From the NCBI GenBank assembly GCA_963701075.1, contig OY969559.1, positions 512,001-576,000 of the forward strand: DNA of 64,000 nucleotides, in the 5' to 3' direction. The DNA is from an uncultured Nitrososphaerota archaeon. Its GTDB lineage: Archaea; Thermoproteota; Nitrososphaeria; Nitrososphaerales; Nitrosopumilaceae. The notes beneath the pieces are model-generated. The model saw nothing but the letters and a program-made list of their open reading frames with translations. It did no database searches and was not told the origin of the DNA. Shown piece after piece: positions 5,257 to 61,923 of the stretch (the first letter of the stretch is position 1; the number at the start of each line of letters is the position of its first letter). The position numbers and the translations under genes are program-made.

Positions 5257-7270
5257 TTGGTTCTAAAACCTATACCAATGGCACGTATTGCCGTGCTTGG
5301 ATTGAGAAAAGATAGGCAGACTGTAGTCTCAGTTCTTCATGATCTAAATGCAGTTCAACTTGAACCCCTTTCAAAAGACGTTGCGGCACTGTTGAGAAAT
5401 GAACGCGATGATGATACGTACAGGCAAGTCTCAGACCAGCTTTTAAGAATGAAGGCTTTGAAAACTGTCCTGCCTCCAATGTCGGTCACACAATGCCAGA
5501 GATTTGGTTCCATAGGACAACTCTTGGAGGGCGCAAAATCTATTGATATAGACGACAAGGTTGCGTCCTTGGAGCGAGAAAAGGAAACCCTCCTGACCCA
5601 ACTCAAAGAAAATGGAAACAACATAAAGCTGGTTGAAGAGTTCTCATTTTTCCCTGAAGATTTTAATGTGTTGCAACTTTCATCTGCTCATTCTTATTTT
5701 GGTAGAGTGGATCAAAAGAACGCTGCTGGTTTTAAGCAAGCATTACAAATACATGGCCAAGATGTCTTCCTGTATTCAAAGGAAGAAAAAGACGCAACAC
5801 GAATTATTCTAGTCACTTTTCCAAACTTTCCTGCACACGCATTAGCTACTGTAGTCCAAGGGTATAATGTCAAACTTGAGGCCGTGCCCAAACTAAAAGG
5901 AAAGGCGGCAGAACTGAGCCAAAGTCTAAAGAACAAACAAAATGAAATTACTCAAAAAATAAATGAAATTGATAAACAATTAGCAGAAATTTCAAAGGAT
6001 CATTATGTAAATATCATATGCCTCGAAGAACAACTAGAAATTGAGAACAAGAAACTCGAGGTAGTCGATAACCTTGGCGTTACTTCAGATTCCTTTGCAC
6101 TCGAGGGATGGATACCAAAGTCAAAGGTAAGCCAACTAAAGAATAGCTTTGACCAGCATTCCAAGGGAACACTACTTTTTGAGCTGAGAAACCGACGAGA
6201 ACCCTCCAACCTTATTTGGCAATCCAAAGAGATTCAAACTGTTTGAGGCCTTTATCCGATTCTACTCCTTGCCGTCAGGAAAAGAATTCGATCCTACTCT
6301 GATCTTCGGTCTAATCTTTCCTGTCTTCTATGGTATGATGGTAGGAGACTTTGGTTATGGCCTTGTCATCTTACTTGTCTGTAGGTGGGTAATTCGAAGA
6401 GTAGAGGGAGGAAAGAAGAACTTTAACATCATGCCCACACCACTGCGTAAGTTTGCCTTGACTATATTGAAACCACGACAAATGGTAAAGCTAGCAAAGG
6501 CCATGACACCTGGAGCAATTATTGCAATGATTTTGGGATTCACATTTAACCTGTATTTTGGATTCCACCTTAACAATTACCTGTTCAACTATCTTAGCAG
6601 CACATTTGGAATGCACTTTCCGGCAGACGGGGCAATATTCAATCCAATTACTGGCCTAAGACATCTACTGTTGCTTGCTGGATATATTGGACTGGGCATG
6701 GTTACATTTGGGTTAATCCTTGGCATACTTAACACCTTAAGAGAAGGAGAGAAAAAACATGCAATAGGCAAGGTAGGCTGGATACTCTTTGGATGGGGGG
6801 TAGTCCTTACTGGATTGGCGCTATTGCACCACCAGCATGTCAACCCACTTCATCACATAGAGGGAGTTGGCTATGTTGGCCTGATGCTTGCTGGAATTGG
6901 TCTCATGTTCTATGGCGAGGGTGTAAGGGCAGTAATGGAATTGCCCTCAATAGTGAGTCACATTCTTTCATACACAAGAATTATTGGAATTTTGCTTGCA
7001 TCAGTTATTTTAGCTGACGTAATTGACTTTATTTTCACAAAGACACTGCATCACACAATACCTTTCATAGTGCTTGGCACCGTCATACTCTTCATAGGAC
7101 ACATATTCAATATCATCATAGGTGTCTTTGAGCCTGGCATACAGGGGGCAAGATTAGTCTATGTGGAATTTTTCTCCAAATTTTATCACGGTAACGGAAG
7201 ACCATTTAGACCATTTGGATCAACAAGAAAGTATACCTCTGATCAGTACGAGATAAAGGCCAAAGAATAA
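5257..7270 (+). CDS. atpI: V/A-type ATP synthase subunit I (split by a +1 frameshift at ~6186, probably a sequencing error)
   Basis: ORFs 5257-6246 and 6269-7270 join if one base after GAGCT(6181-6185) is removed (…LFEL-ETDENPPTLFGNPK…FYSLPSGKEFDPT); motifs MMVGDFGYG, SHILSYTR, RLVYVEFFSKFY. Confidence 0.9.
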
Positions 7271-7278
7271 TTCTGAAA

Positions 7279-7740
7279 TTAATAGTACTTTAGTTCGTTA
7301 ACATCCAATATTCTAGTACAGAATCTGCATCTTAGAACAAGCCCTGTCTTGTCCACTACATCCATCACAGGCTCAATATCTTCATCACTATTTGAGATGC
7401 AATCAGGATTCGAACACTTGAAAATTCGCTCTATCTCATTTGGCAACGTTACGCGCCTCTTCTCAACCAATTTGTATTCCTTGATTATGTTTACCGTTGC
7501 CTTTGGTGCAATGAGTGCAAGCTTGTTAGTATCAGAATCTTGTAGGAATCTATTCTCCACCTTTATGATATCCTTTTTTGCTACCTTTGAGCTGGGAACG
7601 TTGAGTGCTATTGTAATTACATTGCCATCCTTTCCATCTATCCCAAGTGCATTGAGTACCTTGAGACCCTTTCCAGCTTCAACATGATCAATCACGGTGC
7701 CATTTTTGATTTTTCGAACGATTAGGTCTGATTCTGACAT
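7279..7740 (-). CDS. pyrI: Aspartate carbamoyltransferase regulatory subunit
   Basis: IKNGTVIDH, KKDIIKVE, Zn ligands CSNPDC and CRFC; likely start MSESDL at 7740. Confidence 0.95.
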   Translation of the reverse strand: MSESDLIVRKIKNGTVIDHVEAGKGLKVLNALGIDGKDGNVITIALNVPSSKVAKKDIIKVENRFLQDSDTNKLALIAPKATVNIIKEYKLVEKRRVTLPNEIERIFKCSNPDCISNSDEDIEPVMDVVDKTGLVLRCRFCTRILDVNELKYY

Positions 7741-7782
7741 TGGAATAGTTTTTGTACTACTCATATATAACAGTGAACTACG

Positions 7783-8716
7783 ATGAGCAATACTTTTTTC
7801 CAAAAAGATATTGTCTCGGTACGTGATTTTGATAAACAAAAATTTGAGGAAGTTTTCCAAGCTACCGATAAAATAATTGAGATGAATCCAAACGAGAGAA
7901 GAGAACTTGCGCGAGGAAAAACTCTTGGCTATCTTTTCTTTGAGCCAAGTACCAGAACTCGATTGAGCTTCGAGTCTGCAATGGCTTCCTTGGGGGGCAC
8001 CTCTCTTGGCATAACTGATGCTTCATCATCTTCTGCAAAAAAGGGTGAAAGCCTCTCTGATACAGTCAGAATAATGTCGCTATATTCAGATGTAGTTATT
8101 TTACGGCACCAACTTGACGGGTCCAGTAGATTTGCTGCCGAAGTATCAGAAAAACCACTTATCAATGCTGGCAGTGGAACAGAAGAGCATCCAACACAGG
8201 CAATACTTGACCTCTATACAATTAGAAAGGAAAAGAAACGAATTGACGGTCTTAAGATTGGAATAGTTGGAGACCTAAAATATGGAAGAACTGTATACTC
8301 ACTTTTGTATGCTCTGAGCAACTACAAGGTAGATGTTCGGTTGATATCTCCACCAGCCTTGAAGATACGTTCAGACTCTACATATGAGATAAGAAAAAGA
8401 CTTTCGTATACGGAAACAACAGACCTGGAAGAAAGTCTCGATGATCTAGACGTTGTATACGTAACAAGAATCCAGAAGGAAAGGTTTGCTGATATGGAAG
8501 AGTATGTCAAAGTAAAGGGCAGCTACAAGATTGGACTGGAGCTGACTAAAGAAAATGAAACAAGATGCCATAATAATGCACCCATTGCCACGCCTCGACG
8601 AGATCTCACACAAGCTTGATTCCACAAGTAATGCAAAATATTTCAAACAGGCTCAATATGGAAAGGACACGCGTGCTGCTCTGCTTGCACTAATTCTCAA
8701 CGAGAAAGGAATTTAG
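7783..8716 (+). CDS. pyrB: Aspartate carbamoyltransferase catalytic subunit (+1 frameshift at ~8544)
   Basis: [28 protein letters not shown]; the C-terminal [11 protein letters not shown]…YFKQAQYG continues in the shifted frame to TAG at 8714-8716. Confidence 0.93.
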
Positions 8717-9892
8717 CTATTTCACTATACCTGATTGCTTTAGATATTTTATCTCGTTGACAACGTCATCTACTGGAACATTATTGTATATCATGTAATT
8801 GACAGTATTTTTCACCCATGGTGGAACATAGCTACCATGGATTCCAAGTACGTCTAGCAGTTTGGAATCAGATATCGTAAACGTTGAAAAGCCAGCCCAG
8901 GCTATCAGCGCAGATTTTGCGTCAAGATAAAAGTATTCATCAGTGTTTGGAATGTAATTTGGATCAAAGCCTGAAATCACCACTTTGTGCTGGCCATAGT
9001 TTACGTTGAATGCAACGTGCCAATTTTGTGTATCATTATCTTTACTAGTCAAGGAATTGACTTCCTTGCCGTCTATAGATACCGTAAAGTCTCCGGTGCT
9101 TGACCCGTTAGGAAACATGAAATTAGCAAAATATGGTATCTGCCAAGGATTGGCAGCATCAAAAGATATTGAATCACCATTTTCATCAAAGTTTTGATTA
9201 GTAAAATAGACAATTGAGAGTACGCTAAAATAGAATGTCTTGCCTTTTAACGGAGCTGATATTTCTATGGAACTATCAGTTCCTGGAATGAAACAACTGT
9301 AATAATATACCTGTTTTACAACGGCTGGATCAGGATACATTACAAATTCTGCCTTGGCTCCGGGGTCAATCTTTGGTATGGTCCAAGTGCTTTGTACCTC
9401 GTCGAGGTATTGATTATTTTTGTTATGTACCAATGCATAGACATCAATGTTGGTTACCGTATTATTTCCAGTATTTGTGATAAAGCCTGTCAGGTGACCA
9501 TCAGGATATTTTACAAGGGTTCTGTCATAGTTTACCTCTATGTTTAGGGGGTTACTATTGGTAAGAATAAATGAAACTTGGGGTTTTTGCAAAAGAGGCT
9601 CTCCACTAGTTATCTGTGGAAACTTGAATTTGAAAGGCATGTCCTTTAACGAATAGATTGCAGGAAGGATGCGAGATTCTGAAAATGTAGCATCTCCATT
9701 ATTTACTGTAATCTGGACCTTTGCAAGAACAGTCTGGTTATCGGTATTTTTCACTGAGCCATACACAACATAGATTCCATCGTGATCAAAATATCCCGCA
9801 TATTCATTATCAGGTATGTATACTTCTGCGCTTGCAACATGAAACAAGATGCCAAGCAACACAAAGACAGGTATTATGTAGAAGATTTTCAT
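8717..9892 (-). CDS. Secreted thaumarchaeal protein with Ig-like domains and C-terminal 'VPPWVKN…YLKQSGIV' module
   Basis: N-terminal signal peptide; beta-rich repeats 'G.VKNT'/'GFITNTG'; recurrent C-terminal module. Confidence 0.6.
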   Translation of the reverse strand: MKIFYIIPVFVLLGILFHVASAEVYIPDNEYAGYFDHDGIYVVYGSVKNTDNQTVLAKVQITVNNGDATFSESRILPAIYSLKDMPFKFKFPQITSGEPLLQKPQVSFILTNSNPLNIEVNYDRTLVKYPDGHLTGFITNTGNNTVTNIDVYALVHNKNNQYLDEVQSTWTIPKIDPGAKAEFVMYPDPAVVKQVYYYSCFIPGTDSSIEISAPLKGKTFYFSVLSIVYFTNQNFDENGDSISFDAANPWQIPYFANFMFPNGSSTGDFTVSIDGKEVNSLTSKDNDTQNWHVAFNVNYGQHKVVISGFDPNYIPNTDEYFYLDAKSALIAWAGFSTFTISDSKLLDVLGIHGSYVPPWVKNTVNYMIYNNVPVDDVVNEIKYLKQSGIVK

Positions 9893-9991
9893 CCTGATAT
9901 CGCATGAACTTCATTTAATTTGTATTTATCTTACATTATCACGCGCTTGTTCTACACGTATCAATAGTAGACGCTTCACAATCGTCTTTCG

Positions 9992-10558
9992 TTATTCCTT
10001 GATGATTGAAATGATCTCTGAATCTTCTTCAAATAACTCTGAATTGATCTCGTGTGCCAATCCCCAAGTCATGGCTTCATCTGGAGTAAACGTAGTTCTT
10101 TGGTGCATAATGCTTAGAACCTCAAGGACTGACTTTCCCGTGTTGGCTGCTATGACATTTGCAATGTTTTGTTTGTATACTGTCAAGCGTTTTAGTGTCT
10201 CATCAATCTCTCCTTCATCTAAATTTGATTGCTGAAATGACCAATAGGGCTCATGAATCAAAAAGTTTGCATGAGGTACTGAAATACGTCGGCTACCAGC
10301 ACAATACAACAGTACAGCAATGGAAGATACAGTTCCGATATTGAACGTGGTTATTTTTATGGGTACCCCCTTTAGATAGTTGTATCCTGTTAAACCAGCA
10401 GCCGTATCACCGCCATGAGAAGAAATGAGGATCATAAATTCTCTCATTCCTTCTTTCATCTTGTTGTCTACTGTATTCATTAACGAATTAATTGTAGAAT
10501 TGTTGATCTGACCATTGAGCTTAATCACAACAGATTTTGATTTTAGTGCTTGTGTCAT
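9992..10558 (-). CDS. ClpP-like serine protease (S14-type fold)
   Basis: ISSHGG, GTVSSIA (Ser), FLIHEP (His), 'TPDEAMTWGLAHEI' C-terminal pattern of ClpP. Confidence 0.8.
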   Translation of the reverse strand: MTQALKSKSVVIKLNGQINNSTINSLMNTVDNKMKEGMREFMILISSHGGDTAAGLTGYNYLKGVPIKITTFNIGTVSSIAVLLYCAGSRRISVPHANFLIHEPYWSFQQSNLDEGEIDETLKRLTVYKQNIANVIAANTGKSVLEVLSIMHQRTTFTPDEAMTWGLAHEINSELFEEDSEIISIIKE

Positions 10559-10561
10559 ATC

Positions 10562-10957
10562 TTATTTTAAATCTGCTTTTTCTTCAAGTTGTAGTATCTG
10601 CTGTATTTCTGTTGATGATGTGTCCAGTACTCTTGAAATGAATATCCATCCGTGTGTTTCTTCGATAATATCTTTTGCGGGATGCCACTCTGAAGTTCCA
10701 GGATTAAACTTGATAACCTTGCTTATTTCTGTTGCATTTTTTAGATTTTTGCTCTTTACATAGTAGATGTTGATATCAGTCAAATCTCCATCGGAGAAAT
10801 ACAATGGCTTGTAAAAAATATCAGTAGATTCAATTTGAAAAATCGTAGTAGAATTAGAACCACGATAATCTAGAATGCATGTAAAAAGATCTATCTCACT
10901 TTCAAGCTTGTATATGTGATACTTTGCCTTTGATTTTAACTTGTGAATTATGCTCAT
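10562..10957 (-). CDS. Hypothetical protein, co-oriented 3 bp upstream of the ClpP-like gene
   Basis: ORF track 10562-11020; ATG at 10957 avoids overlap with the next gene. Confidence 0.5.
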   Translation of the reverse strand: MSIIHKLKSKAKYHIYKLESEIDLFTCILDYRGSNSTTIFQIESTDIFYKPLYFSDGDLTDINIYYVKSKNLKNATEISKVIKFNPGTSEWHPAKDIIEETHGWIFISRVLDTSSTEIQQILQLEEKADLK

Positions 10958-10982
10958 ATTTTTCCATAAAACAAAAAAAGGT

Positions 10983-11237
10983 TTAGTGGCAAGAAATATT
11001 CCTTGCCTCAAATGCCTCATTCATTGTGAGGTATTCTTCTATCTTCATCTTGACATCTTCTGGAGTCGTATCGTCCATGCCAGAAAATCCGATCTTAAAT
11101 GCGATCTTATTTCCTGATACGTGAAGATCAGAGAGTTCGATATCTGCATACACGTTAGATAACTCTCTTGTCCACTCCTCTGGATTTGATACACCAAATC
11201 CGTTTGTCTCGATGTTTACAGAAACCATTTTTGTCAT
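10983..11237 (-). CDS. Small acidic hypothetical protein
   Basis: 84-aa ORF with AT-rich TATA-like upstream region. Confidence 0.6.
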   Translation of the reverse strand: MTKMVSVNIETNGFGVSNPEEWTRELSNVYADIELSDLHVSGNKIAFKIGFSGMDDTTPEDVKMKIEEYLTMNEAFEARNISCH

Positions 11238-11355
11238 CTTGTTATTATTAACTAATTGCTTAATATATAACCCTTCTTAATATTAAGGAAAGTATACTAT
11301 AATTACTATTAATAATATGTAAAAAGTTAATATAGTAATTTATGATACACCTGAC

Positions 11356-11530
11356 ATGAAGGAATGGGAGGCATATGATGTGAAAGCACGAAAGAAGGTG
11401 AAGATACTGGATCCAAAAATAGTTCAGCTGAAAAAATAAGAGATGGGCAGTAGTTGGCAAGAGTCCTGTTACTGGGATCAAAGTTGTCAGGATTCTGGGT
11501 AAAGAAGATGCATTAAAAGCAAAAAAATGA
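11356..11530 (+). CDS. Small basic CC1/DUF5679-like putative chromatin protein (+1 frameshift at 11430)
   Basis: Removing G11430 gives MKEWEAYDVKARKKVKILDPKIVQLKNKRWAVVGKSPVTGIKVVRILGKEDALKAKK; YDVKA…KSP.TGIKV.R.LGK resembles crenarchaeal CC1. Not in the ORF track. Confidence 0.7.
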
Positions 11531-11775
11531 ACAAAGAAAAATATTTGTTTTCATAACTAAAAATACCATATAACCAAAAGATACTTGCTACTCTGGCAGA
11601 TGTCAAAACTACATAATTTTATTTCCTACTGTAGGCAAACACCACTAGCTCTCTTCTACGAATATTGATTTCCTATGAAATATTACTTGCAATAAACTTT
11701 CAAAGTTGGGGGAACTAGCGCTTGTCAAAAAATCCAAATCATTACAACATTGAGAATTATATTTCTAAATAGAGC

Positions 11776-12159
11776 TCAGGCAGTTATCAATTTTACATGT
11801 TCCATTTCATCACTTGCTTGGAATTCTTGTGTCATTTCACGAACCTTTGATGCCTTACCATTGAGCACAAACAGCTCCAAACATTTGTTGTTTCTTACCT
11901 TGCAATGTAGATGTGTCTGTATTATATCTTCAAATCTATGTTTTATTTCGGTGACAGATGTCTCGCCGTCTTCTTCATGTGTAACCGTGAGCACACATCC
12001 TATGTCTCCTGTCTGCTTTTCCTTTTCCATCTTGTCTGTCAAAAGCATCCTTATTCCGGCCCTGATTAATTCAGATCTGCCCGTAAAACCAAATTCTTTT
12101 TGCAACTGATCCATTTCTTTTAAGATGTTGTCATTTAATGAGATGCTAACAATTCCCAT
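11776..12159 (-). CDS. NikR/CopG-family ribbon-helix-helix metal-responsive regulator
   Basis: IVSISL…RSELIRAGIR RHH domain; C-terminal HLHCK…CLELFVL metal-binding domain; divergent from a metal ABC transporter. Confidence 0.88.
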   Translation of the reverse strand: MGIVSISLNDNILKEMDQLQKEFGFTGRSELIRAGIRMLLTDKMEKEKQTGDIGCVLTVTHEEDGETSVTEIKHRFEDIIQTHLHCKVRNNKCLELFVLNGKASKVREMTQEFQASDEMEHVKLITA

Positions 12160-12169
12160 GCCATTTTTC

Positions 12170-12270
12170 GGTTATTAACCGTATATAAAGTTAATATGAG
12201 TAAATTATTAATTTTCAATATTTCATAGTAGTAATTTTAATAACAAAAGTATATATTATTATTAATTTAA
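12170..12270. promoter_or_regulatory. Divergent promoter with TTAWTAA-N15-TTAWTAA candidate operator (12237-12265)
   Basis: TTAATAA(12237-43)/TTATTAA(12259-65) flank AAAAGTATATA; the arrangement is conserved in a second copy at 15159-15187. Confidence 0.55.
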
Positions 12271-12280
12271 TCTGCATGAA

Positions 12281-13255
12281 GTGGCTAAGAAAAACCAAAT
12301 TATTATTGCGGTTATAATTGCAATAGCAATAGGCGCAGTTTCAGTAGGTCTAATTTACAATAATTCTGAAAAGAATCAAAACAGCAGTACCCCTGTCAGC
12401 TCTAGTTCAGTTTCCAGTCCGAGTTCAACATCAACAATACAAATAGTAGCAGCTGAAAACTTTTGGGGTAGTTTAGTATCTCAGCTTGGCGGAACGCACG
12501 TACAAGTGTTGAGCATTGTTTCAGATCCTAATGCAGATCCACATGAATACGAAAGCAATACTGCAGATGCCCAAGCAATCACTAATGCTAATTATGTAAT
12601 TGTCAATGGAGCCGGATATGACGATTGGGCACTAAAAATTATTGCAGCAAGCAATAATCCAAATCAAAAAGTTTTGAACGTGGCAGATCTTATCGGAAAA
12701 AAAGAGGGTGACAATCCCCATTTTTGGTATAGTCCTTATTATGTGAATGATACTGTGAACAAGATGTATCATGATCTTATTTCTATCGATCCATCTAATA
12801 CCGCATATTATACACAGCAATACGCTAGCTTGAATGCATCACTTGGCATATACAACACTCGAATCGACGAGATCAAGCAGCAATACCATGGCACACGCGT
12901 GGCAGCTACTGAGAGCATCTTTGTATATCTGGCAAACGCTACAGGTCTTGACCTTGTCTCTCCACCTGAATTTATGGAAGCTGTTGCAGAAGGAAACGAC
13001 CCGCCGGCACCGAGCGTCGTGCAATTTCAGCAGCAGCTTCAGGGTCAGGGAGGGAATGTGACCATGTTGGTCTATAATGAACAAACGGTAACGCCGCTCA
13101 CACAAAGTATCAAGGCATTGGCCGCTGCACAAGGCATTCCAATTGTTGGTGTAACAGAAACCATACAACCACCAGATGTCTCCTTCCAGGATTGGATGAA
13201 TGGAGAATTGCTTGCTCTTCAAAACGGTCTTAACTCCCAAGCTCTGGGACAATAA
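12281..13255 (+). CDS. Zn/Mn ABC transporter substrate-binding protein (ZnuA/TroA family)
   Basis: DPHEYE, NGAGYDDW, NPHFWY motifs; N-terminal membrane anchor. Confidence 0.9.
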   Translation: MAKKNQIIIAVIIAIAIGAVSVGLIYNNSEKNQNSSTPVSSSSVSSPSSTSTIQIVAAENFWGSLVSQLGGTHVQVLSIVSDPNADPHEYESNTADAQAITNANYVIVNGAGYDDWALKIIAASNNPNQKVLNVADLIGKKEGDNPHFWYSPYYVNDTVNKMYHDLISIDPSNTAYYTQQYASLNASLGIYNTRIDEIKQQYHGTRVAATESIFVYLANATGLDLVSPPEFMEAVAEGNDPPAPSVVQFQQQLQGQGGNVTMLVYNEQTVTPLTQSIKALAAAQGIPIVGVTETIQPPDVSFQDWMNGELLALQNGLNSQALGQ

Positions 13256-13258
13256 TGA

Positions 13259-15002: not shown

Positions 15003-15030
15003 ATTCAAAATTATTGATGACCACACTCGG

Positions 15031-17225: not shown

Positions 17226-17319
17226 AAACTCAATTAAATTCTTCTAATAATATATGTTAGTGAGAATAGAGCTAACATTAAATATGAAGCTGGTCACATC
17301 GTCAATCGGGTACTGTTAA

Positions 17320-21897: not shown

Positions 21898-22264
21898 TTG
21901 CTATCTAAAGAGGAATTTATCACTAATGCAAAGGTAGGAAAGATATTAGCAAGAAAATGCACTAAATGTGGACATCCTCATCTGGTAACTACATACTTTT
22001 GCCAAAATTGTGGAAACAAGGGATTTGAGAATGTAATAATTGATGGCAAGGGCACAGTCAGCTACCTATACCATAATAACCGTCCCGCCAGAAGGTTTTG
22101 AGAAAGCTGTTCCATATGCCTGGGTTGTTATGAATGTGGATAATTTCGAATTACGAATTTCCGGCTTTATGGCAAATATCAAATCGCCAGCAGATCTGCC
22201 TTTGGGTACAAAAGTAAAGATAACCGGATATGATGAACACGGAATGATCATCGAAAAGCAGTAA
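21898..22264 (+). CDS. DUF35 Zn-ribbon/OB-fold thiolase partner (+1 frameshift at ~22059)
   Basis: CTKC…CQNC then YTIITVPPEGFEKAVPY; the two ORFs join on removing one base before AGCT. Confidence 0.85.
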
Positions 22265-31822: not shown

Positions 31823-32873
31823 ATGAAAGCAGTTGTTTATGAAAAATATGCTCCAAACGATGATTACAAATCAATTTTGCAAGTAAAAGAAGTTCCAGAT
31901 CCAAAACCAAAACCAAATGAAGTTGTCTTTAGCGTAAAGGCCGCCGCATTAAATTATAATGATATTTGGGGAATGAGGGGCCAGCCAGTTCCCGTTCCAT
32001 TACCACACATCTCTGGTTCCGACGCCGCAGGAGATGTAGTTGCTGTTGGCGAAGATGTCACAGGTTTCAAAGTTGGTGACAAAGTTGTTTCTCACTCAAA
32101 CATGTCCTGCAGAGTGTGTCAAGCATGCACTGACGGTCGTGAATATGATTGCCAGAAGAGAAGCATCTGGGGATTCCAGACAGGTCCTCTATGGGGTGCA
32201 TTTTCTGAGCTTACTCATTTACCTGAAGTTAATGTAGCAAAGATTCCTGACGGTGTAAGTTATGATGAAGCGGCGGCAGCTTCAATGACATTACTTACTT
32301 CTTGGCACATGTTAGTAGGCCGAGCAAAAATTCGACCAGGTCAAGTAGTCCTTATCATGGGAGGGGGTTCTGGTGTAGGAAGCTTTGGAATTCAAATTGC
32401 AAAACTGTACAATTGTACTGTAATCTCAACCGCAAGTGGAGATAAACTAGACAAGCTAAAACAGACTTGGCGCAGATTATGCAGTAGACCACAGGAAAGA
32501 AGACTGGAGCAAACAAGTAAGAGATATAGCAAAACCATACGGTGGCATCGATATCTCATTTGACCACATTGGTCAGACACACTGGAATGCTCAACTCACA
32601 TTGCTAAAGTATGGTGGAACACTTGTTTCATGTGGTGCAACAACCGGATATGACGCAAAGACTGACTTGAGGCATATCTTCTTCAAAGGAACAAACATCC
32701 TAGGTTCAACACAAGGAACAAAAGCTGAACTAGAGCATGGCCTGTTCTGGATGGGTAAAAAGAAGATAAAAGCTGTAATTGATTCTTCATATAGCTTTGA
32801 AAATGCCGCAGAAGCACACACCAAAATGTTAACCGGTAAGGGACTCTTCGGCAAAATCTTATTGAAGCCATAG
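31823..32873 (+). CDS. Zn-dependent alcohol dehydrogenase/MDR family protein (+1 frameshift at 32465)
   Basis: PHISGSD, CRVCQAC…C, GGGSGVG; removing A32465 puts the frame in register with 32601-32873. Confidence 0.88.
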
Positions 32874-45387: not shown

Positions 45388-46290
45388 CTATCTTAGAGCA
45401 GAGTCTACCATGAGTGCAATAAACAAGATTGCAAGGTATGGACTAGAGAACTTGAACAATGTCCAAGATGCCCTCTCAGAAGGTTTCACAAGAAGCCATA
45501 TGCTTAACGCTATCATTATTGCACCTGATGCTATTGCGCTGTAAAGATAGGTTGCATGGAACAAATGTTTTCCAGAAGCGTCTGTCATGAAAAATGGTAA
45601 CACGCTGAACAACACCATCATCAAGGTGGTGCCAGCTATTACTCGAACCGATGTCTTTTCAGATTCAACTGCAGTAAGCATTGGGACTTTGACTTTGTTG
45701 TAATCGTCCTTGACATGTAACGTGAGACTCCAGATGTGCATTGGAATCCAGACAAAGACCAATCCTGCCATGACCAATCCGAGATCCCACATGCCGGTTG
45801 TTGTTACTGCCACATAGCCAATCATTGCGGGAGCTCCTCCTGAGAACCCTCCCAAAACAATATTTGTCCTGCTTCTTCGCTTTAGAAATTTACTATAAAC
45901 TAGAATGTTGTCTGCAAGACCAAATGCCATAAAGATACCAGCCCATATGTTAATTGCAAATGCACAAACTAGTGATATGCCGGCAAGAATTAATCCAAAA
46001 TACAACGCCTTCTTTGCTGGATATATTCTCCTGCTTGGGATCGGCCTTTCCTTTGTTCTTTCCATGATGGCATCAATGTCCCTGTCATTGTAGTTTGTTA
46101 GTGTGTTAGCTGCGGCAGAGCCTGCTATGACACCAAAGGTTACAAGTGCCCAAGTCAGGGCAGATACTGGAATATGATATAGATTAGAAGCAGTATATGT
46201 TGCACCCATTGCGGTAAAGACCAAAAGGTACCATATCTTAGGCTTGGTTACTTCATAGTACGTCTTAATTCTGGAACTAGACTTTTGTTG
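45388..46290 (-). CDS. ctaB: Protoheme IX farnesyltransferase (heme o synthase)
   Basis: YYEVTKPKIWYLL upstream of the ORF-track start, DRDIDAIMERTKERPIP, WIPMHIW; start codon unclear (in-frame TAA at 46291-46293). Confidence 0.9.
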   Translation of the reverse strand, partial: QQKSSSRIKTYYEVTKPKIWYLLVFTAMGATYTASNLYHIPVSALTWALVTFGVIAGSAAANTLTNYNDRDIDAIMERTKERPIPSRRIYPAKKALYFGLILAGISLVCAFAINIWAGIFMAFGLADNILVYSKFLKRRSRTNIVLGGFSGGAPAMIGYVAVTTTGMWDLGLVMAGLVFVWIPMHIWSLTLHVKDDYNKVKVPMLTAVESEKTSVRVIAGTTLMMVLFSVLPFFMTDASGKHLFHATYLYSAIASGAIMIALSIWLLVKPSERASWTLFKFSSPYLAILFIALMVDSALR

Positions 46291-54464: not shown

Positions 54465-54514
54465 TATACTTGAGGTATAGCCGATTATTTATTTAACTAC
54501 TGAGATGATGAGTT

Positions 54515-54655: not shown

Positions 54656-54884
54656 GCCTAATTTTCCATTCGAGGATCCTAAGTACATTGATGATTCTAT
54701 TAACACAGAAATATGCCCTTCTTGTAATTTGTCTTTTTCAGAACATACCAACCATGAGATTGTAAAATGTGCATTAGACGAGCTAAGAGGTGGAAAGAAG
54801 CGGACTATTGACTTGACTGATCTGGAAAATAACGAATGGGTATGTGAAAAGTACCCGTCTAATAATCAAAATTGCGATCCATAG
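54642..54884 (+). CDS. Small protein with CxxC-x6-H-x7-C putative Zn site
   Basis: CPSCNLSFSEHTNHEIVKC; GAGG upstream. Confidence 0.6.
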   Translation: MKTSKPNFPFEDPKYIDDSINTEICPSCNLSFSEHTNHEIVKCALDELRGGKKRTIDLTDLENNEWVCEKYPSNNQNCDP

Positions 54885-54898
54885 CAAAGAAAGGAGGA

Positions 54899-55063
54899 TT
54901 GAGTACAATATCCACTGATTCATTCTCGAATTTAACAACGATTACAATAACCGCTGAGACTCGCAGGAGATTAGAGGTATTATGCAAGAAAGATCAAGAT
55001 TTTGACAGTGTGATAAACAAGCTTATTTTACTCTCGTCTGACAAATTGGAGGATTTTTGGTGA
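54899..55063 (+). CDS. Small RHH/antitoxin-like DNA-binding protein
   Basis: TTITITAETRRRLEVL…DFDSVINKLI; AGGAGG before TTG 54899. Confidence 0.65.
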   Translation: MSTISTDSFSNLTTITITAETRRRLEVLCKKDQDFDSVINKLILLSSDKLEDFW

Positions 55064-55890
55064 GTAACGGATCAGTAACACATCGAGGTCACGGATCAGA
55101 GTATGATATTGAACAGTTTTACAAAAGGGCTCTATCTATATGTGAAACTGGAAAGAGACCGTTTTGCTTTAAGGATTTTGATGATATCAGCCCAGGCAAC
55201 TTTAGGCAATATGTTCACAGATCAGGAAGCAAGATAGAGATTGTAAAAAAGGGAAGGCCAACACTGTACAAAGTTAGAGGAATTGAACTTGCAGGCGATT
55301 CCCATAGAATAACGAATAGGGTAACGGGGGTTAATCCAGAATTTGAACATCTACTAGAATCGCTCAGAGACCAACCTCCAATGATTCATGATATTCATCT
55401 AAAATTTGAATCTGAGTTGCATTCTAGTCTTGTTTCTAAAGGGTTATCGGTCAATCCAACTAATCACGCCATAGAGAACATAAGATATGCCGCACTTGAC
55501 AACAATATCAAAACCAAGATCCTGGTGTATCCATATACAACCCAGATTATCATAGGGTGTACTTGCAAACCAATTATCTATGATGCTTCAGGAATTTGGT
55601 CTCTATTTTCATATCTTTCTCAGGTACAATTTCATTTATCAGAACTAACAAACCATCAAGTCGTAATTCCAGAGGTAAAAACATGGATTGTTACACGTTA
55701 TGATTTCAATAAAGATGGTTCGGAATCAGTTATTGGAGGGCCTTTTTGCATGGAATTTCAAGATGTTTCAAATGGACTTATACGATTTTACCTAAAGAAG
55801 ATGCCAAACGGTGAAAGGATTCCAAGACTTGAACAAACTAGGACTCCTAACAAGTCGATTTCAGATATTGTGCAGGAGATCCTGTCGTAA
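55057..55890 (+). CDS. Putative Rep_trans-like rolling-circle replication initiator
   Basis: Ordered motifs VTRYDFNKD, LIRFYLKK, PRLEQ resemble the Rep_trans R-x-D-x-x-x-D, R-x-Y-x-K and R-x-E motifs; N-terminal wHTH-like region. Assigned by eye. Confidence 0.5.
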   Translation: MVSNGSVTHRGHGSEYDIEQFYKRALSICETGKRPFCFKDFDDISPGNFRQYVHRSGSKIEIVKKGRPTLYKVRGIELAGDSHRITNRVTGVNPEFEHLLESLRDQPPMIHDIHLKFESELHSSLVSKGLSVNPTNHAIENIRYAALDNNIKTKILVYPYTTQIIIGCTCKPIIYDASGIWSLFSYLSQVQFHLSELTNHQVVIPEVKTWIVTRYDFNKDGSESVIGGPFCMEFQDVSNGLIRFYLKKMPNGERIPRLEQTRTPNKSISDIVQEILS

Positions 55891-55906
55891 TGAACAATTG
55901 AGCCAA

Positions 55907-56137
55907 ATGACCCCACCAAAGCCTCCCTCGTTTAAAGCTAAAACGGGAAGAAAGACAAAACGTGAAAGGATCCAACAAGACGGAAGATTAATGACAAACG
56001 CCATTCTGGGAGATAGTCCTTGGGAAGCTTCTCTTTACGCAGGATGTGGCTATGAATATGCGGTGAAAAAATTCCTAGAGTTTGGATTCATTTTTGATCA
56101 TAAAACACGACTATGGATCAGGATCAAACGATTCTAA
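55907..56137 (+). CDS. Small basic hypothetical protein
   Basis: 3' part of ORF 55811-56137, following the Rep-like stop. Confidence 0.5.
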   Translation: MTPPKPPSFKAKTGRKTKRERIQQDGRLMTNAILGDSPWEASLYAGCGYEYAVKKFLEFGFIFDHKTRLWIRIKRF

Positions 56138-56156
56138 GTAAATGTAGAGACTCATT

Positions 56157-56625
56157 TTTACGTAAAATACGTAAATTTAGGCACGTAATGTTACAGGTTT
56201 TAGGGAATGGAGTCAGGATATGAAATTTTACGAAAAGTTCGTAAATTTAGGCACGTGATTTTACGGAATTTTCACAAAATGTGAAAATTTAGGCACGTGA
56301 TTTTTCACATTTTTGGTGAACTGGAAATAGAGGTTATGAAATTTTACCTATTTTGGGTAAATTTAGGCACGTGATTTTACACATTTTTATGAGTAGAAGG
56401 GGGAATGAAATTTATGAATACAAAACATCGTCCCGAGTTTCGTTCCTAGAATAGGGGGATCACCAGGGAAAAATAGACAAAAAAGAAGGTGTGATACCGA
56501 TCCCGAGTTTTAGATAGCGTTAATGGAAGATATCTACGAAATTTTTGAGTAATTGTGGGGGTACTGATCTGCGTTTTATTATTTTATGTCATATCATCCT
56601 AATTTTAGGCACGAAAATATGGCAT
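56157..56625. repeat. Array of four structured units (variable palindrome + invariant TTTAGGCACGT) plus one orphan core
   Basis: Cores at 56176, 56246, 56288, 56362 (spacing 70/42/74) and TTTAGGCACG at 56604; each of the four preceded by an 8-bp/3-nt-loop inverted repeat. Confidence 0.9.
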
Positions 56626-56745
56626 CATATGACCGAGGTAAAATTTCTGCTTGAAAGACATACTAACTTCGGTATAAAAAAAGATGAGATACGATCTAGA
56701 ATTTGTGGTCTTGCATGTGTATGATCAGAGATAATTTCTAAAACA

Positions 56746-56916
56746 TCAAACATCAGTACTTTTTGCAAGGTAAATTTTGTCATTTTCTTCTACGAACATG
56801 ATAGTCTCTCCTTCCTGAAGATGATATTTCTCTCTGACCTTCTTTGGTATGGTTACCTGGAACTTGTAGCTTATGGTCGTCATTCCAAGTATCTCTTTCT
56901 TTGAATCCTTTATCAT
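56746..56916 (-). CDS. AbrB/MazE/SpoVT family DNA-binding protein
   Basis: TTISYKFQVTIPKKVREKYHLQEGETIMF. Confidence 0.88.
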   Translation of the reverse strand: MIKDSKKEILGMTTISYKFQVTIPKKVREKYHLQEGETIMFVEENDKIYLAKSTDV

Positions 56917-57090
56917 TATTACTTGCCTTGATTGTAATGAATGTAAAGCAAGATTCATTAATTAGACCCAAGAAAGTAAAGAATTCTTGGAAAGTAAAGA
57001 TAATTTCATTCATGGATTAAGAGATTCCAGAGTTGGGATGAAGATAGAACCGTACCAAGTTCTATTTGTTAAATTTTACAATCGAGAACT

Positions 57091-57744
57091 ATGAAGCTTA
57101 ATCTCAATTATTCTGTCACTAGTACTTGCAAGCTCTGTCATAGGATATGGTGTACAAGCATCTGCTCAGATGACAGGTGGCGGGATCTGTGGTAATCATC
57201 CATGTGCACCAGGAGAGGTCTATCCGCCAAGTACCCCTTCATCAGGAACTGGAATTACAGTCTCAACTGACAAACCGTCATATAATTATGGTGACACCAT
57301 TACCATATCGGGTACAACGAGTGTTTATCTTGGTGATACCCCTCTTACGCTTATTCTAAGAAATCCAGTTGGAAATATTGTCATAGCAACACAACTCACA
57401 GTGGGAACAGACGATACCTTTTCTGAGACTGCGGTTGCTACAGGTGCACTGTGGCAATCTGCTGGTACGTATACAATATCTGCCATATATGGTAACACAA
57501 ACATGTCTGCTACAACCACATTCCAGTTCTCAGGTTCTTCTTTACTCCATCAAGTCCAAGTACTGTACCAAACGCTGGCACAAATGCTACTATTCAACAA
57601 CCACCATCTTCTACCACCCCGCAATCAAAGATTCCCGCTTGGGTCAAAAACATCTTCATCTGGTATGGCAGGGGCAGCATCTCAGACGATGAATTGATAG
57701 GTGCCATACAGTTTCTTATACATCAGGGAATAATCAAAGTCTGA
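57091..57744 (+). CDS. Secreted Ig-like protein with C-terminal thaumarchaeal module (apparent frameshifts at ~57099 and ~57542)
   Basis: Repaired: MKLISIILSLVLASS… signal peptide, VSTDKPSYNYGDTITISG, …KIPAWVKNIFIWYGRGSISDDELIGAIQFLIHQGIIKV. Confidence 0.7.
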
Positions 57745-57915
57745 AATTTTTGAATTACAAAACATCAACCTGAATTTCAGAAAACTTGATTCTCTTTGCG
57801 GTATCTATGGCATCACTCATACACAATTAATATGTAATACTAGTAAAAAATCATGATAACGATTACTAATGATTTGTACATTAGAGAAGAAAACTAAACA
57901 GAATTAGTTTTGCAT

Positions 57916-59355
57916 CTACTCAGTAATATAATGACGATTCTTAGGCCACATTTTGAATATTGGTTTATACTTATCCATTTTCAAGTAATTCTTTACAATT
58001 TTTATCTTGTTTTCTAGTTTTTCTGAACCTTGTTGGAATTGTGCATTTTCCAGCATAATGTATAATTCGTCTTTTGTTTTGTTTAAAATAACATATGTTG
58101 CAATAATTATTCTCGCATAATCCATCATCAAGAAGCCAAATTCATCCTTATTCTTGAATCGTTTTTTTATTGCCTTTTCAGTTTTATTACTCATTTTATC
58201 GCCATGAACATATTTGCTTCTTACATCATATGCAGTCAACATATCATCATACACCTTCTTCGAATCTAGTCCGATTAAACCTAATAATTTTGAAGAATTT
58301 AACGCAAATCGTAACTTTTGATCTCCCTCGGATTTAATCAATAATGCTTCGATAGCCATAACTGCATATGATACTGAAATTCGGATTAAATGAATTGATT
58401 TTAATCCATTCATATATCGTGATAATGATATTTCTAGTTCATTATCTTCCCTGTAATGGTTAACTATAGATCTAGTTAATCGTTTTTCCATTACTCCATA
58501 AAATAGCTTAAGATATTCTATCTCATTTTCTTTAATTCTTGCGTAGTATTGTAATCCTGGATCATGATAAAACCCCAATCTATACGTGCCATGAAATGTA
58601 CGTTCTATGTTTGAAGATTTGTTACTTATTCCAATACAATCAGGCGATGATAATTTGAATAATGTAAGAATTAATTCGATTTTTTTTAATGTTTCAAAAC
58701 TGTGATCATATTTCAAATCTTGTTTATACGTAAATTCTAATATGCAAAAACATTGCTCTACTACCTCATTATAATCATCCCATTCCTCTGGTTTAACTTC
58801 GATCTCAAAATCTTTCTTGTTGGCTTTTCTTATTCTAAGATATTTGTTTACGATGATTTCGTTTTGTTCTATCATAATTCCTGAAAGATAAGATGTTGTT
58901 TTGATTATCGGCAGTTCATCTTTAATCGAGTTAATAAGGTATTTCACTAAATTCTTAACATTAAAAAATTTTGTATCATGCTCATAACAAAAAACAAATA
59001 ATGCTTTTTCTACAAACGCTCCAAAAAGAAATTTATCTTCGTTCTTACTAATTTTGTTTATTCTTTCATTCATTTTTTTGTAAAAATCATCTTGTTTCAA
59101 ATCATTATGTGCAACGTAAAGGAGTCGATCCCAATCAATTTTTTCTTTAGTATCTGTAAATCTGTCAATAGAATACCATTTGTGAAACTTTGACCATCTT
59201 ACATTTGGAATTTTATAATATTTTTTACCCAGGGGGTGGTTTCTTTTTTTCAAATCTAGAACTAAATTTCGTAGATATGTGGTATACCTATACAGATCTA
59301 TCTCAATCTGTTTTAATTCTTGATCTGATGAAGACATGGAGTCATTATCTTTCAA
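57916..59355 (-). CDS. HEPN-domain protein (ApeA-like), putative defence RNase
   Basis: AVMAIEALL helix and YDVRSKYVHG (RxxxxH) in the C-terminal third; very AT-rich. Confidence 0.78.
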   Translation of the reverse strand: MKDNDSMSSSDQELKQIEIDLYRYTTYLRNLVLDLKKRNHPLGKKYYKIPNVRWSKFHKWYSIDRFTDTKEKIDWDRLLYVAHNDLKQDDFYKKMNERINKISKNEDKFLFGAFVEKALFVFCYEHDTKFFNVKNLVKYLINSIKDELPIIKTTSYLSGIMIEQNEIIVNKYLRIRKANKKDFEIEVKPEEWDDYNEVVEQCFCILEFTYKQDLKYDHSFETLKKIELILTLFKLSSPDCIGISNKSSNIERTFHGTYRLGFYHDPGLQYYARIKENEIEYLKLFYGVMEKRLTRSIVNHYREDNELEISLSRYMNGLKSIHLIRISVSYAVMAIEALLIKSEGDQKLRFALNSSKLLGLIGLDSKKVYDDMLTAYDVRSKYVHGDKMSNKTEKAIKKRFKNKDEFGFLMMDYARIIIATYVILNKTKDELYIMLENAQFQQGSEKLENKIKIVKNYLKMDKYKPIFKMWPKNRHYITE

Positions 59356-59463
59356 TTGTTTTTATTGATAAAGTAATCTGAAGTTTTAGAATTAGTATAA
59401 CAATAGGCCAGAACAAAATTGGCCTGATTCAAGATTATATACAATGTTCTGCTTCGTAATCTA

Positions 59464-60834
59464 TTGAGCATATTTTCTAAAAAAATCGATTCAATAACCC
59501 GAGAAGACTTGGAATCTCTGATAAGAGAATCTGAACGAGAGAGCATACAACTTGATTATAAACAAGGCATAAATCCTTCAGAAAATGGCAAACATGATTT
59601 GGTGAAGCTGGTAGTAGGAATGGCAAACACAGAAGGGGGATACATAATTTTTGGAATTAATGAAGACAAACAAAAGGGAATACCGACTAAAATGGAAGGA
59701 ATAGATCCATCTGTTGGAGGACAAAAGGTTGACGAATGGCTAGAAAATGTCATCAATCCCCACATAAGTCCAAGAGTTGTAATTAGGATTAAAACTATAG
59801 CACTTGAAACCAAAATAGCATTAGTTTTGTGGGTACCGCAAAGTACAAGAAAGCCGCACATGTCGACCCTTGATAATGACTTTAGGATTTACCGACGTTA
59901 TAATACTCAGTCACTGCCTGCCAGTGAAGGAGAATTAAGAGAAATGTATCTTGCATCTAATAAAATTGAAAGAGTAAGAGAAGATTTCATATTGAAAAAA
60001 AATCTTACTAATGTCTCAAATAAGGAATTTGGTCTAACAACAAATTCTGATAACCTCCTGTCAAAGCTTGGCATAGAAAATAAGTATGAATATCCAATTG
60101 TGACGCTTTCATCCTGCCCTAGGTTTCTAGAAGAGAAAGTAAATTTCTCATCTGACACTTTTCAATCATGGCTGTCGAAAAATTCTTTTACAAAAATCCA
60201 GAATCAAGATATAGAAATTTTTCGTTATAATCCACCTATTCTAGAACAAAATTCGATAACAATATTGCGTAAGATGGGAATGAATGATAAAATATTGGAA
60301 TACCTTGAAATCCAAAGAAATGGATTTATTGAACAATGTAAAACATTACAACTTATTCATTCTGATGGAAACAAATTTGTATTAAATCTTGGGAGATTAA
60401 CTGTTGCACTTTGGGCATTTTTATATTATGTAAAAAATTTCTATCAACAAATTGATTATTTAGATGAATTTTCTATTTTTATGTCCATTAGAAATTCTAA
60501 TCGCCTTGAACTATGCGGTTTGTTAGGACTATCCGAAAGAGGACACCCGTATTCTACTGAATCAGATGACCTTTTTAGATATCTGGATATTACCCCCATG
60601 TATACTGCCACTACGTATGATCCAGTTTTTCCTACTACTCAAAAGGAACAAAATCTATCACATTCAGTTAATTTAACTATGAATAATCTCACGGATGAAG
60701 AGATCTATGACATTGTGAAAAATTTTGCAGATAGGATAAGTAATGCATTTGGTTTGGCTAAAGCACATTGTTATAATAACGATGGAACATTTGTTAATAG
60801 ACACTTAGACTTTTACAACAAACTACTATCTTAA
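59464..60834 (+). CDS. Schlafen/AlbA_2 domain protein
   Basis: ESIQLDYKQ, GMANTEGGYIIFGINE, KPHM…IYRR. Confidence 0.85.
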   Translation: MSIFSKKIDSITREDLESLIRESERESIQLDYKQGINPSENGKHDLVKLVVGMANTEGGYIIFGINEDKQKGIPTKMEGIDPSVGGQKVDEWLENVINPHISPRVVIRIKTIALETKIALVLWVPQSTRKPHMSTLDNDFRIYRRYNTQSLPASEGELREMYLASNKIERVREDFILKKNLTNVSNKEFGLTTNSDNLLSKLGIENKYEYPIVTLSSCPRFLEEKVNFSSDTFQSWLSKNSFTKIQNQDIEIFRYNPPILEQNSITILRKMGMNDKILEYLEIQRNGFIEQCKTLQLIHSDGNKFVLNLGRLTVALWAFLYYVKNFYQQIDYLDEFSIFMSIRNSNRLELCGLLGLSERGHPYSTESDDLFRYLDITPMYTATTYDPVFPTTQKEQNLSHSVNLTMNNLTDEEIYDIVKNFADRISNAFGLAKAHCYNNDGTFVNRHLDFYNKLLS

Positions 60835-60881
60835 CGCAGTATACTTGTGATCATTGAAGAAGATTCAATTATTTATGACAT

Positions 60882-61184
60882 TCAAACAGGTCTCAGAAGC
60901 TCTTCGATTTTTGTGAGGATTACTTCATTTTCCACAGTTTTTTTTCTTACCTCTTCATTCATCTGTTCTTGATTTTTCTTGTATGTTCTGAGTAATTCAT
61001 AAATTGAAAGCCTTTCCTTTGCACGATCCTCAGTGGTTTTGAAAAGATTATGATCTGCCCAGAATCGTTGGTGACATTTACTACACATCGGTTCAGATAC
61101 TCCAGATGAAAAGACACGTTTACACGTAGGTCTGGGACACTGGACATATCTTGGTTGATGGGTACGCATCCAAATACCGCCCAT
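60882..61184 (-). CDS. Small Zn-ribbon plus coiled-coil protein
   Basis: QCPRPTC…CSKC followed by a charged helix. Confidence 0.6.
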   Translation of the reverse strand: MGGIWMRTHQPRYVQCPRPTCKRVFSSGVSEPMCSKCHQRFWADHNLFKTTEDRAKERLSIYELLRTYKKNQEQMNEEVRKKTVENEVILTKIEELLRPV

Positions 61185-61280
61185 GTTATATAGATAACAT
61201 TTTTTTGTATTTTAATGTTATTGGATAACAGAACTTTTAATATATACACTACTAGTATAGTAGTGTGGAGAAGTAGTGTA

Positions 61281-61923
61281 ATGCAAATAGAATTAGATCA
61301 AAAGAAAATAGCAAGAAGCGGAGGAAGCACCGTATTGTACCTATCTAATGATGCTAAAAAATACATTCACGAAGGTGACCTTGTAGATTATCAAGTAATT
61401 CTAGACGATAACGTAGTAAAGATATTCATAACAAAAAAGCTGTTCAATTTTACTCTTGAAGATATCAAGAATCTCGTAAAAAAACATGAATTTGAAATAG
61501 AATATGATAAAACACTAGATCATATTCTGGTATTTAACGCAATAAAAAATCATCTTTCATTAAGACTATACTAAGAATGTTAATGAAAAAATATCTCCAG
61601 CAAATATTGCACTTTCTTTAACATGGCCTGACGTGAATGATTATGAAAAATACAAACATGTAACAGAACAGATAGATCAATTAAAAAATAAATACGATTT
61701 GATTACAAGAACTGAAGGAGATTTGGATGTGATTAACATACTGAAAGAACCATCTAGATATAAAGTGGACATAGTAGAGGCATTAAAACTACTTAAGAAA
61801 GCTGGCAAGAAAATAGGCTTATCAGCTGTAATTCGATTTGATGATGGAAAAGACGATCTTAATCGTATATCTAGTGCCCTCAACGAATTAATGACCTTAG
61901 ATTCCAAGATCTCTTTTCAATAA
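61281..61923 (+). CDS. AbrB-like N-terminal domain protein (+1 frameshift at 61565)
   Basis: KKIARSGGSTVLYL…EGDLV; removing A61565 fuses ORFs 61215-61574 and 61633-61923. Confidence 0.62.

Follow-up and report, generated by a model that had tools for sequence, protein, structure and literature searches.

Errors induced by base modification, mainly C-to-T and G-to-A, survive in nanopore-only bacterial assemblies (PMC11610603), and the strongest error enrichment was reported at a motif associated with 4mC (bioRxiv 10.64898/2026.01.14.699587). In the portions of these two sources available to us, methylation-linked nanopore errors are described mainly as substitutions, and motif-specific single-base insertions are not described. 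For ammonia-oxidising archaea, two further papers report two methylated motifs, AGCT (m4C) and GATC (m6A), with 82-96% of AGCT sites methylated (PMC6329791; PMC8919816). In a Ca. Nitrosoarchaeum genome, AGCT was found to carry m4C at 96% of its sites; the same paper cites the mark for Ca. Nitrosomarinus catalina (PMC6329791), and it was also seen in two marine Thaumarchaeota MAGs (PMC8919816). This agrees with what an earlier note on the DNA studied here, made from the sequence, had stated about Nitrosopumilus-type archaea. A REBASE-derived table lists enzymes for AGCT m4C from three Thaumarchaeota/Nitrososphaerota genomes, under the entries M.NspBD3I, M.Nca01I and M.TarMY3I (PMC11033074). Our literature search found no published methylome for the soil lineage of ammonia-oxidising archaea considered below.

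Surplus bases at AGCT in the window

The window analysed here is a stretch of 64,000 nucleotides from the genome of an ammonia-oxidising archaeon, as indicated by an archaeal amoA gene (PF12942, 348.9 bits, C1:15456-16004). The earlier note had described seven genes in which the frame is broken by a single base inserted in or beside AGCT. Strings of the forms AGCTg, cAGCT, AGaCT and AGCTt were found at all seven coordinates, and at each of them the base was surplus in comparison with homologues (Table 1). The note had also placed two other lesions outside the motif. For the lesion near 57542 this was correct: it does not fit AGCT and might be a homopolymer-length error. The lesion at the start of the ctaB-like gene, however, turned out to be a further AG-a-CT site, the eighth AGCT site in the window. 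The PF01040 match of this UbiA-family gene lies at window 45445-46224, the N-terminus of its homologue in the same-genus genome G009 is spread across two frames in the window, and the DNA alignment places a single extra base within AG^CT.

In the small CC1-like gene, the frame break is confined to the zone 11429-11440, and the A6 run is equally long in the window and in the only relative spanning the site, from which it follows that the surplus base is a G. The region 54500-63700 has almost no DNA-level match among 62 other genomes of the genus, and the sites 57099 and 61565 were therefore compared with paralogues and protein-level homologues. Once a base is removed at 57099, the reading frame runs from the ATG through a signal-peptide-like N-terminus. 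The frame break of the AbrB-like gene falls in the zone 61561-61574, where deletion of the middle A alone restores a serine conserved in all three homologues. Three other positions (40364, 50948 and 55827) were flagged by a score for merging ORFs, but they correspond to ordinary gene boundaries in genomes G009 and G022.

Table 1. Motif-associated errors in the window, with the genes affected and the comparison sequences that lack the surplus base
Position	Assembly string	Error	Gene and effect	Comparison
6182..6186	AGCTg	surplus G 6186	ATPase subunit I gene (atpI), split into ORFs 5257-6246 and 6269-7270	7/7 same-genus genomes
8540..8544	AGCTg	surplus G 8544	pyrB, truncated, ORF 7783-8619	5/5 same-genus loci
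11426..11430	AGCTg	surplus G 11430	small CC1-like gene	L018, the sole relative spanning the site
22059..22063	cAGCT	surplus C 22059 before AGCT	DUF35-like gene, split into ORFs 21898-22101 and 22040-22264	5/5 same-genus loci
32463..32467	AG-a-CT	surplus A 32465 within AGCT	dehydrogenase gene, ORF 31823-32563	5/5 same-genus loci
46279..46283	AG-a-CT (AG-t-CT on the gene's strand)	surplus base 46281	UbiA-family (ctaB-like) gene on the minus strand, five codons in	
57095..57099	AGCTt	surplus T 57099 or the next A (the two are indistinguishable)	secreted-protein gene, three codons in, start 57091, ORF 57170-57697	4/4 homologues, including one paralogue of the same genome
61563..61567	AG-a-CT	surplus A 61565	AbrB-like gene, split into ORFs 61215-61574 and 61633-61923	three full-length homologues (211-248 aa), uninterrupted across the junction
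8012..8015	AACT (AGCT in reads)	substitution, A at 8014 should be G		
11160..11163	AACT (AGCT in reads)	substitution, A at 11162 should be G		

Public reads and a genome-wide census of frame breaks

Contigs from four public soil-metagenome runs (X1, X2, X3 and X5) were aligned to window positions 5200-23000 (17,801 bases), a stretch that holds four of the eight window sites; 32465, 46281, 57099 and 61565 lie outside it. One base was absent at 6186, 8544, 11430 and 22059 in the contigs of X1, X2 and X3. X1 and X2 may share samples with the assembly and are thus independent in technology only. Run X5 belongs to another study and is independent, although its depth is low (2.5 at 6186, 3.9 at 22059); it lacked the base at these two sites, the two insertion sites it covers, had no cover at 8544, and matched the other runs at every discrepant place within its cover. 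All four runs compared showed A>G at 8014 and 11162. Apart from the four omitted bases and these two substitutions, the contigs of X1-X3 differed from the assembly by no indel or substitution in the 17,801 bases, and no homopolymer differences were seen in this 17.8-kb stretch, indicating that the assembly is not generally error-prone. All six discrepant places are TAGCT/AGCTA sites: 6 of the 23 such sites in the read-compared stretch were affected, and none of the 43 other AGCT sites. In runs X6-X21 just a small fraction of the query words occurred, and these runs stayed outside the comparison.

For a genome-wide view, an internal test, in which k-mers were scored by how often deletion of a base merges two long ORFs, proved too noisy: AGCTG/CAGCT was enriched only 1.78-fold and ranked behind compositional confounders, which scored equally in an insertion control. 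A homology census was used instead, with 2732 ORFs of G009 aligned to this genome by tblastn. Of the 142 frame junctions that it returned, 119 had a single surplus base. Among 110 well-localised +1 breaks, 77, 98 and 99 could be repaired to AGCT at a tolerance of 0, 1 and 2 bases, respectively, compared with 3.3%, 5.6% and 7.7% of random conserved-coding positions (20,000 draws); for 98 of 110 against 5.6%, the binomial p is about 3e-108. AGCT, which occurs 5719 times in 1,915,938 bases (one per 335), ranked first among the 256 tetramers at frame breaks genome-wide. Of the 12 +1 breaks left over, 5 fit GATC (null 7.1%, p 9e-4). The census caught four of the eight window sites, and substitutions are under-counted, since only frame breaks are detected. 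The other 23 junctions, with one base missing or two surplus, form a mixed class. Two of these, at window 5256-5268 and 7780-7783, show no indel in the reads and are census artefacts or real differences, and at least two more (654686 and 1202265), each with two AGCT-type words, may be double insertions.

The 110 localised breaks include 45 AGCTGA/TCAGCT words and 41 AGACT/AGTCT words. These error forms make up strand-symmetric pairs, and their context preferences extend beyond the motif (AGCTA versus a different flank, a G at -1 and a purine at +5), the pattern that a basecalling artefact should leave; G stands at -1 in 26 of the 45 AGCTGA/TCAGCT cases, against a background of 18%. Of 37 cases of the form AGCT-g-A, 32 are on the sense strand, compared with a split of 677 to 460 for intact AGCTA sites, a skew that we tentatively attribute to the extended purine-rich context.

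The errors are thus absent from accurate reads at four sites and concentrated at AGCT genome-wide. Both outcomes bear out the earlier note, which had judged real pseudogenisation unlikely and had proposed a test for AGCT enrichment at indels across the genome: four of its seven sites (6186, 8544, 11430 and 22059) read without the surplus base, and 98 of 110 breaks can be repaired to the motif.

Candidate methyltransferases and the origin of the errors

A search for methyltransferase genes returned a candidate for the AGCT enzyme, namely one full PF01555 DNA methyltransferase of 288 aa (140 bits, C1:910512-911378) with an SPPY motif, the single SPPY-type N4/N6 enzyme in the genome. SPPY is a signature of N4-cytosine (m4C) methyltransferases; M.Mma5219II and M.NspBD3I are characterised enzymes of the AGCT m4C type. 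Among the best solved relatives of the protein in the PDB are two chains that carry the name DNA cytosine-N4 methyltransferase. Its gene is an orphan and adjoins an Alba gene. A second PF01555 match (C1:343832) belongs to a THUMP-domain tRNA methyltransferase and not to a DNA enzyme. A Dam-family gene (PF02086) is present and adjoins amoA, and no C5 methylase (PF00145) was found in the genome.

We consider it highly probable that the surplus bases are consensus errors of long reads, not present in the DNA of the organism, and that methylation of AGCT is their most likely cause; the apparent gene breaks are spurious. The single 1.9-Mb contig together with the uncorrected errors suggests that the assembly was made from long reads of native DNA without effective short-read polishing, probably on the nanopore platform. 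We infer a modification of the m4C type, introduced by the SPPY enzyme and misread by nanopore sequencing. According to this model, the cytosine of AGCT would be N4-methylated, most likely by the SPPY-type methyltransferase, and the methylated base would distort the signal that reaches the basecaller, giving rise to errors at AGCT. The outcome would be set by the wider sequence context: AGCTA would be read as AGCT-g-A or AGCT-t-A or, seen as TAGCT on the opposite strand, would have its G replaced by A (AACT), and other AGCT sites would become AG-a-CT (AG-t-CT on the other strand).

Errors of this kind could also arise, independently of methylation, if the basecaller, assembler or polisher mishandled k-mers that contain AGCT, but we regard such a sequence-specific bias as unlikely. 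It would suit the strong dependence of the error form on extended context, as well as the proportion of TAGCT/AGCTA sites hit, which is about a quarter, whereas the bulk of AGCT sites are methylated in the published relatives. On the other hand, the motif is the exact palindromic tetramer reported to carry m4C in related archaea, the minor motif GATC is exactly the second methylated motif of those archaea, matching methyltransferase genes are present in the genome, and such a bias sits poorly with an assembly otherwise free of differences over 17.8 kb. Real mutations, produced by motif-directed mutagenesis or genome decay, with the public runs representing a different, intact strain, are very improbable. 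Contigs drop rare variants, and a minority strain with the insertions could go unseen in them; however, at least 119 conserved genes, among them atpI (ATPase subunit I) and pyrB, would have to be broken, the lesions were absent wherever reads were compared, and a different strain would differ elsewhere, whereas the contigs of the possible source runs, over pieces as long as about 9 kb, match the window in all but 0-2 further letters. Programmed +1 ribosomal frameshifting or recoding signals at AGCT would account for the shared motif and the essential genes affected, but we give this practically no credence, as the extra base is missing from all aligned relatives and from the DNA reads at four of the four sites compared, which contradicts it there, and the motif is hit irrespective of orientation and codon phase.

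Consequences and comparison with known systems

The value of the result lies mainly in quality control. Essential genes are broken by the errors, and the completeness estimate (94.96%) is lowered. By extrapolation from eight insertions in the 64-kb window, four indels and two substitutions in 17.8 kb and 119 breaks in the census, the genome would carry about 200-400 false single-base insertions at AGCT, plus substitutions. Such errors would seed false calls of pseudogenes, frameshifts or recoding, and AGCT-linked frame breaks in this genome should be discounted. The footprint of errors is also a cheap pointer to likely methylation motifs where modification data are lacking. More tentatively, and with somewhat less than even confidence, we suggest that the error pattern may serve to read out the methylome of this soil lineage of ammonia-oxidising archaea, with two motifs: AGCT m4C would be introduced by the orphan SPPY enzyme and GATC m6A by the Dam-family enzyme. 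At E ≤ 1e-20, the SPPY enzyme has matches, many of about 50% identity, in 80 of the 151 genomes sampled from the order, including 22/23 and 13/13 genomes in two other families. Given this distribution of the enzyme, AGCT m4C could be an epigenetic mark that dates far back and has been widely retained across the whole order, and not a trait linked to defence.

Homopolymer-length errors of long-read assemblies likewise appear as single-base frameshifts in otherwise intact genes; here, in contrast, the A6 run beside 11430 is as long as in the relative, and the 17.8 kb compared with reads are free of homopolymer differences. The nanopore-only bacterial assemblies (PMC11610603; bioRxiv 10.64898/2026.01.14.699587) offer a closer parallel, with errors at a short methylation-type motif kept in the final consensus and with G-to-A substitutions, which are found here too at 8014 and 11162. 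In this genome, however, the dominant detectable form is the single-base insertion, and the host is an archaeon. With the ammonia-oxidising archaea whose methylomes have been described, this organism shares amoA, one SPPY-type gene and one Dam-family gene. The published cases come from lake and marine settings, whereas soil metagenome runs match here, and the two error motifs of the present genome, AGCT and GATC, are the two motifs reported as methylated in those archaea.

Surplus bases at AGCT in the window

The source contig is a single sequence of 1,915,938 bases with 38.6% G+C, of which the window represents bases 512001-576000. The genome contains 5719 AGCT sites (one per 335 bases), 194 of which fall within the window; with an observed/expected ratio of 1.07, the tetranucleotide is not avoided. 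The earlier note, made from the sequence alone, described seven frameshifts as one-base insertions in or beside AGCT. All seven AGCT-type strings were present at its coordinates, and each site had a surplus base in comparison to DNA or protein homologues. The start of ctaB had been set apart as not fitting the motif, which proved incorrect: the first five codons of this UbiA-family gene are in a different frame, and the surplus base lies inside AGCT. The window therefore contains eight such sites.

Sites with a surplus base (window coordinates) and genes outside the window (C1, contig of the genome under study, G000; lower case, surplus base; ^, gap position)
Feature	Position	Relation to AGCT	Observation
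atpI	6186	after AGCT	exactly one base more than in 7/7 aligned relatives
pyrB	8544	after AGCT	exactly one base more than in 5/5 aligned relatives
CC1-like	11430		G absent from the sole spanning relative
DUF35-like	22059	before AGCT	exactly one base more than in 5/5 aligned relatives
Dehydrogenase	32465	AG^CT	exactly one base more than in 5/5 aligned relatives
ctaB/UbiA	46281	AG^CT	one base absent from G009 (same genus)
Secreted protein	57099	AGCT-t-A	one base absent from four homologues (one a paralogue within the same genome)
AbrB-like	61565	AGaCT	three full-length protein homologues of the order (211-248 aa) uninterrupted across the junction
PF01555 DNA methyltransferase	C1:910512-911378		full, SPPY motif, 288 aa; only such gene in the genome
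Alba-like gene and PF01555 gene	G000:C1:909900-911378 (L156)		methyltransferase gene directly downstream
Dam-family PF02086 DNA methyltransferase gene	G000:C1:14478-16004 (including amoA)		same strand as amoA, directly adjoining

The sites were aligned with homologous DNA of same-genus genomes. An unpublished genome (G011) was among the relatives for 6186, 8544, 22059 and 32465, and the result was unchanged without it. At 11430 the A6 run is equally long in the window and in the spanning relative, which rules out a homopolymer error. Once the surplus base at 57099 is deleted, the ATG at 57091 shares its reading frame with an N-terminus resembling a signal peptide. The neighbourhood of 61565 has almost no DNA match within the genus, and a serine present in all three protein homologues is restored only by deleting the middle A of AGaCT.

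The secreted-protein gene carries a second lesion at 57520-57545: next to a short T run, a variable linker is one base short, and translation shifts there into the frame of the conserved C-terminal tail. As the earlier note stated, this lesion (near 57542) does not fit the motif. It lies away from any AGCT, and a base is missing rather than surplus; either a homopolymer error or a real difference could account for it. Between 54500 and 63700, DNA-level matches are almost wholly lacking among 62 other genomes of the genus, the exceptions being a small conserved gene (~56731-57026) and the multi-copy secreted-protein family, which would fit a variable or integrated region.

Comparison with public metagenome runs

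Logan contigs of three soil-metagenome runs from one study (X1, X2 and X3, the first two possibly being source samples of the assembly) and of one run from another study (X5) were aligned to window 5200-23000. The only indels were single absent bases at 6186, 8544, 11430 and 22059. X1-X3 lacked the surplus base at all four positions (depths 5.7-13), and X5 lacked it at 6186 (depth 2.5) and 22059 (depth 3.9), 8544 and 11430 being outside its coverage. The only substitutions, found in all four runs, were A>G at 8014 and 11162, each converting AACT of the assembly to AGCT. All six differences in this 17.8-kb stretch thus fall at AGCT, specifically at TAGCT/AGCTA, where 6 of the 23 sites were affected, as opposed to none of the remaining 43 AGCT sites. 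Loose contig ends in X1-X3 resemble a transposase adapter, which suggests that these are short-read libraries. The earlier note had named accurate reads carrying the inserted bases as evidence against its interpretation; at the four sites compared, the reads lacked them.

Genome-wide census and forms of the error

As a census reference we used the whole genome of G009 (99% complete, 13 contigs, 1.79 Mb), whose 2732 ORFs of at least 90 aa were compared with the genome under study by tblastn. The 179 candidate HSP pairs yielded 142 frame junctions, 119 with one surplus base in the genome under study and 23 with residue 2; the census detected 4 of the 8 window sites. To place each junction, all possible deletions of one base were scored against G009 DNA, and 110 were kept after nine of the 119 were excluded for poor localisation. 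Deletion restored AGCT at 77, 98 and 99 of the 110 junctions at tolerances of 0, 1 and 2 bases, against null rates of 3.3%, 5.6% and 7.7% (20,000 random conserved-coding positions from 1,367,194 covered bases). Enrichment of AGCT, which the earlier note had proposed to examine at all indels, was evident genome-wide at these one-base-surplus junctions (98/110, binomial p ~3e-108). AGCT ranked first of 256 tetramers, followed by overlapping words such as TAGC/GCTA. "One base missing" junctions were also recorded at window 7780-7783 (pyrB N-terminus) and 5256-5268 (an antisense ORF); since the aligned metagenome contigs have no indel at either place, they represent either artefacts of the census or genuine differences in start site.

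The localised junctions comprised AG-a-CT (39), AGCT-g (37, next base A in all), AGCT-c (12, some of which describe the same event from the opposite strand), AGCT-t (5, next base A in all), other forms (5) and junctions without AGCT (12). Counted by words, 45 belonged to AGCTGA/TCAGCT and 41 to AGACT/AGTCT. In the former class, G preceded AGCT in 26/45 (intact AGCTA sites, 18%) and a purine stood two bases past AGCT in 34/45 (versus 45%); in the latter, A was at -2 in 27/41 (versus 30%). AGCT-g-A lay on the sense strand in 32/37 cases, against 677 to 460 for intact AGCTA sites; the excess probably reflects an extended purine-rich context. Five of the 12 non-AGCT junctions were repaired to GATC, four as AGAATC (null 7.1%, p 9e-4), which suggests that GATC is the site of a second, minor class of errors. 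The AGAATC words, where relatives imply AGATC, include +1 frame breaks at G000:C1:363004, 1410218, 1410817 and 1796180.

Methyltransferase genes and the likely cause of the frame breaks

The genome contains archaeal amoA. The search for a methyltransferase gene yielded one candidate, the single PF01555 protein with the SPPY motif, of the N4/N6 type; its specificity for AGCT is putative. The Alba-like chromatin protein encoded upstream was identified from the ORF translation alone. The four ORFs of at least 120 aa at this locus include no recognisable restriction enzyme, so that, judging from sequence, the protein is apparently an orphan methyltransferase. Among the solved structures closest to it are two chains deposited under the name DNA cytosine-N4 methyltransferase. 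Of 151 genomes sampled from the order, 80 contain matches to it (E <= 1e-20), the best ~50% identical. A second PF01555 match was rejected as a THUMP tRNA methyltransferase, and no PF00145 C5 methylase was found in the genome.

The reads at four sites and the census support the earlier view that the frameshifts are not real pseudogenes; they are artefacts, and both their type and the motif are already known. Methylation of AGCT is the likely cause, given amoA, the SPPY and Dam-family genes, the published AGCT/GATC methylomes and modification-linked nanopore errors; we infer the methylation, its type, the enzyme and the platform alike. That a methylation-independent k-mer bias produces the errors seems improbable. 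Real mutation or recoding is effectively excluded at 6186, 8544, 11430 and 22059 by reads without the surplus base, and is implausible elsewhere because 119 conserved genes would be broken. The biological novelty of the frameshifts is low, and throughout this genome frame breaks linked to AGCT, as well as AACT/AGTT variants, are to be discounted.

Assemblies made from nanopore reads only retain C-to-T and G-to-A errors due to base modifications (PMC11610603), and in a 2026 preprint G-to-A changes were most strongly enriched at a motif associated with 4mC (bioRxiv 10.64898/2026.01.14.699587); motif-specific insertions are not described in the passages of these papers drawn on here. As the earlier note stated, AGCT m4C is reported in related archaea. 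In a Ca. Nitrosoarchaeum genome, 96% of AGCT sites carried m4C and 98% of GATC sites m6A, and the same pair, termed likely conserved within the group, occurs in Ca. Nitrosomarinus catalina (PMC6329791). AGCT was modified at 82-91% in both Thaumarchaeota MAGs of another study (PMC8919816), and AGCT m4C enzymes are tabulated for three Thaumarchaeota/Nitrososphaerota genomes (PMC11033074).
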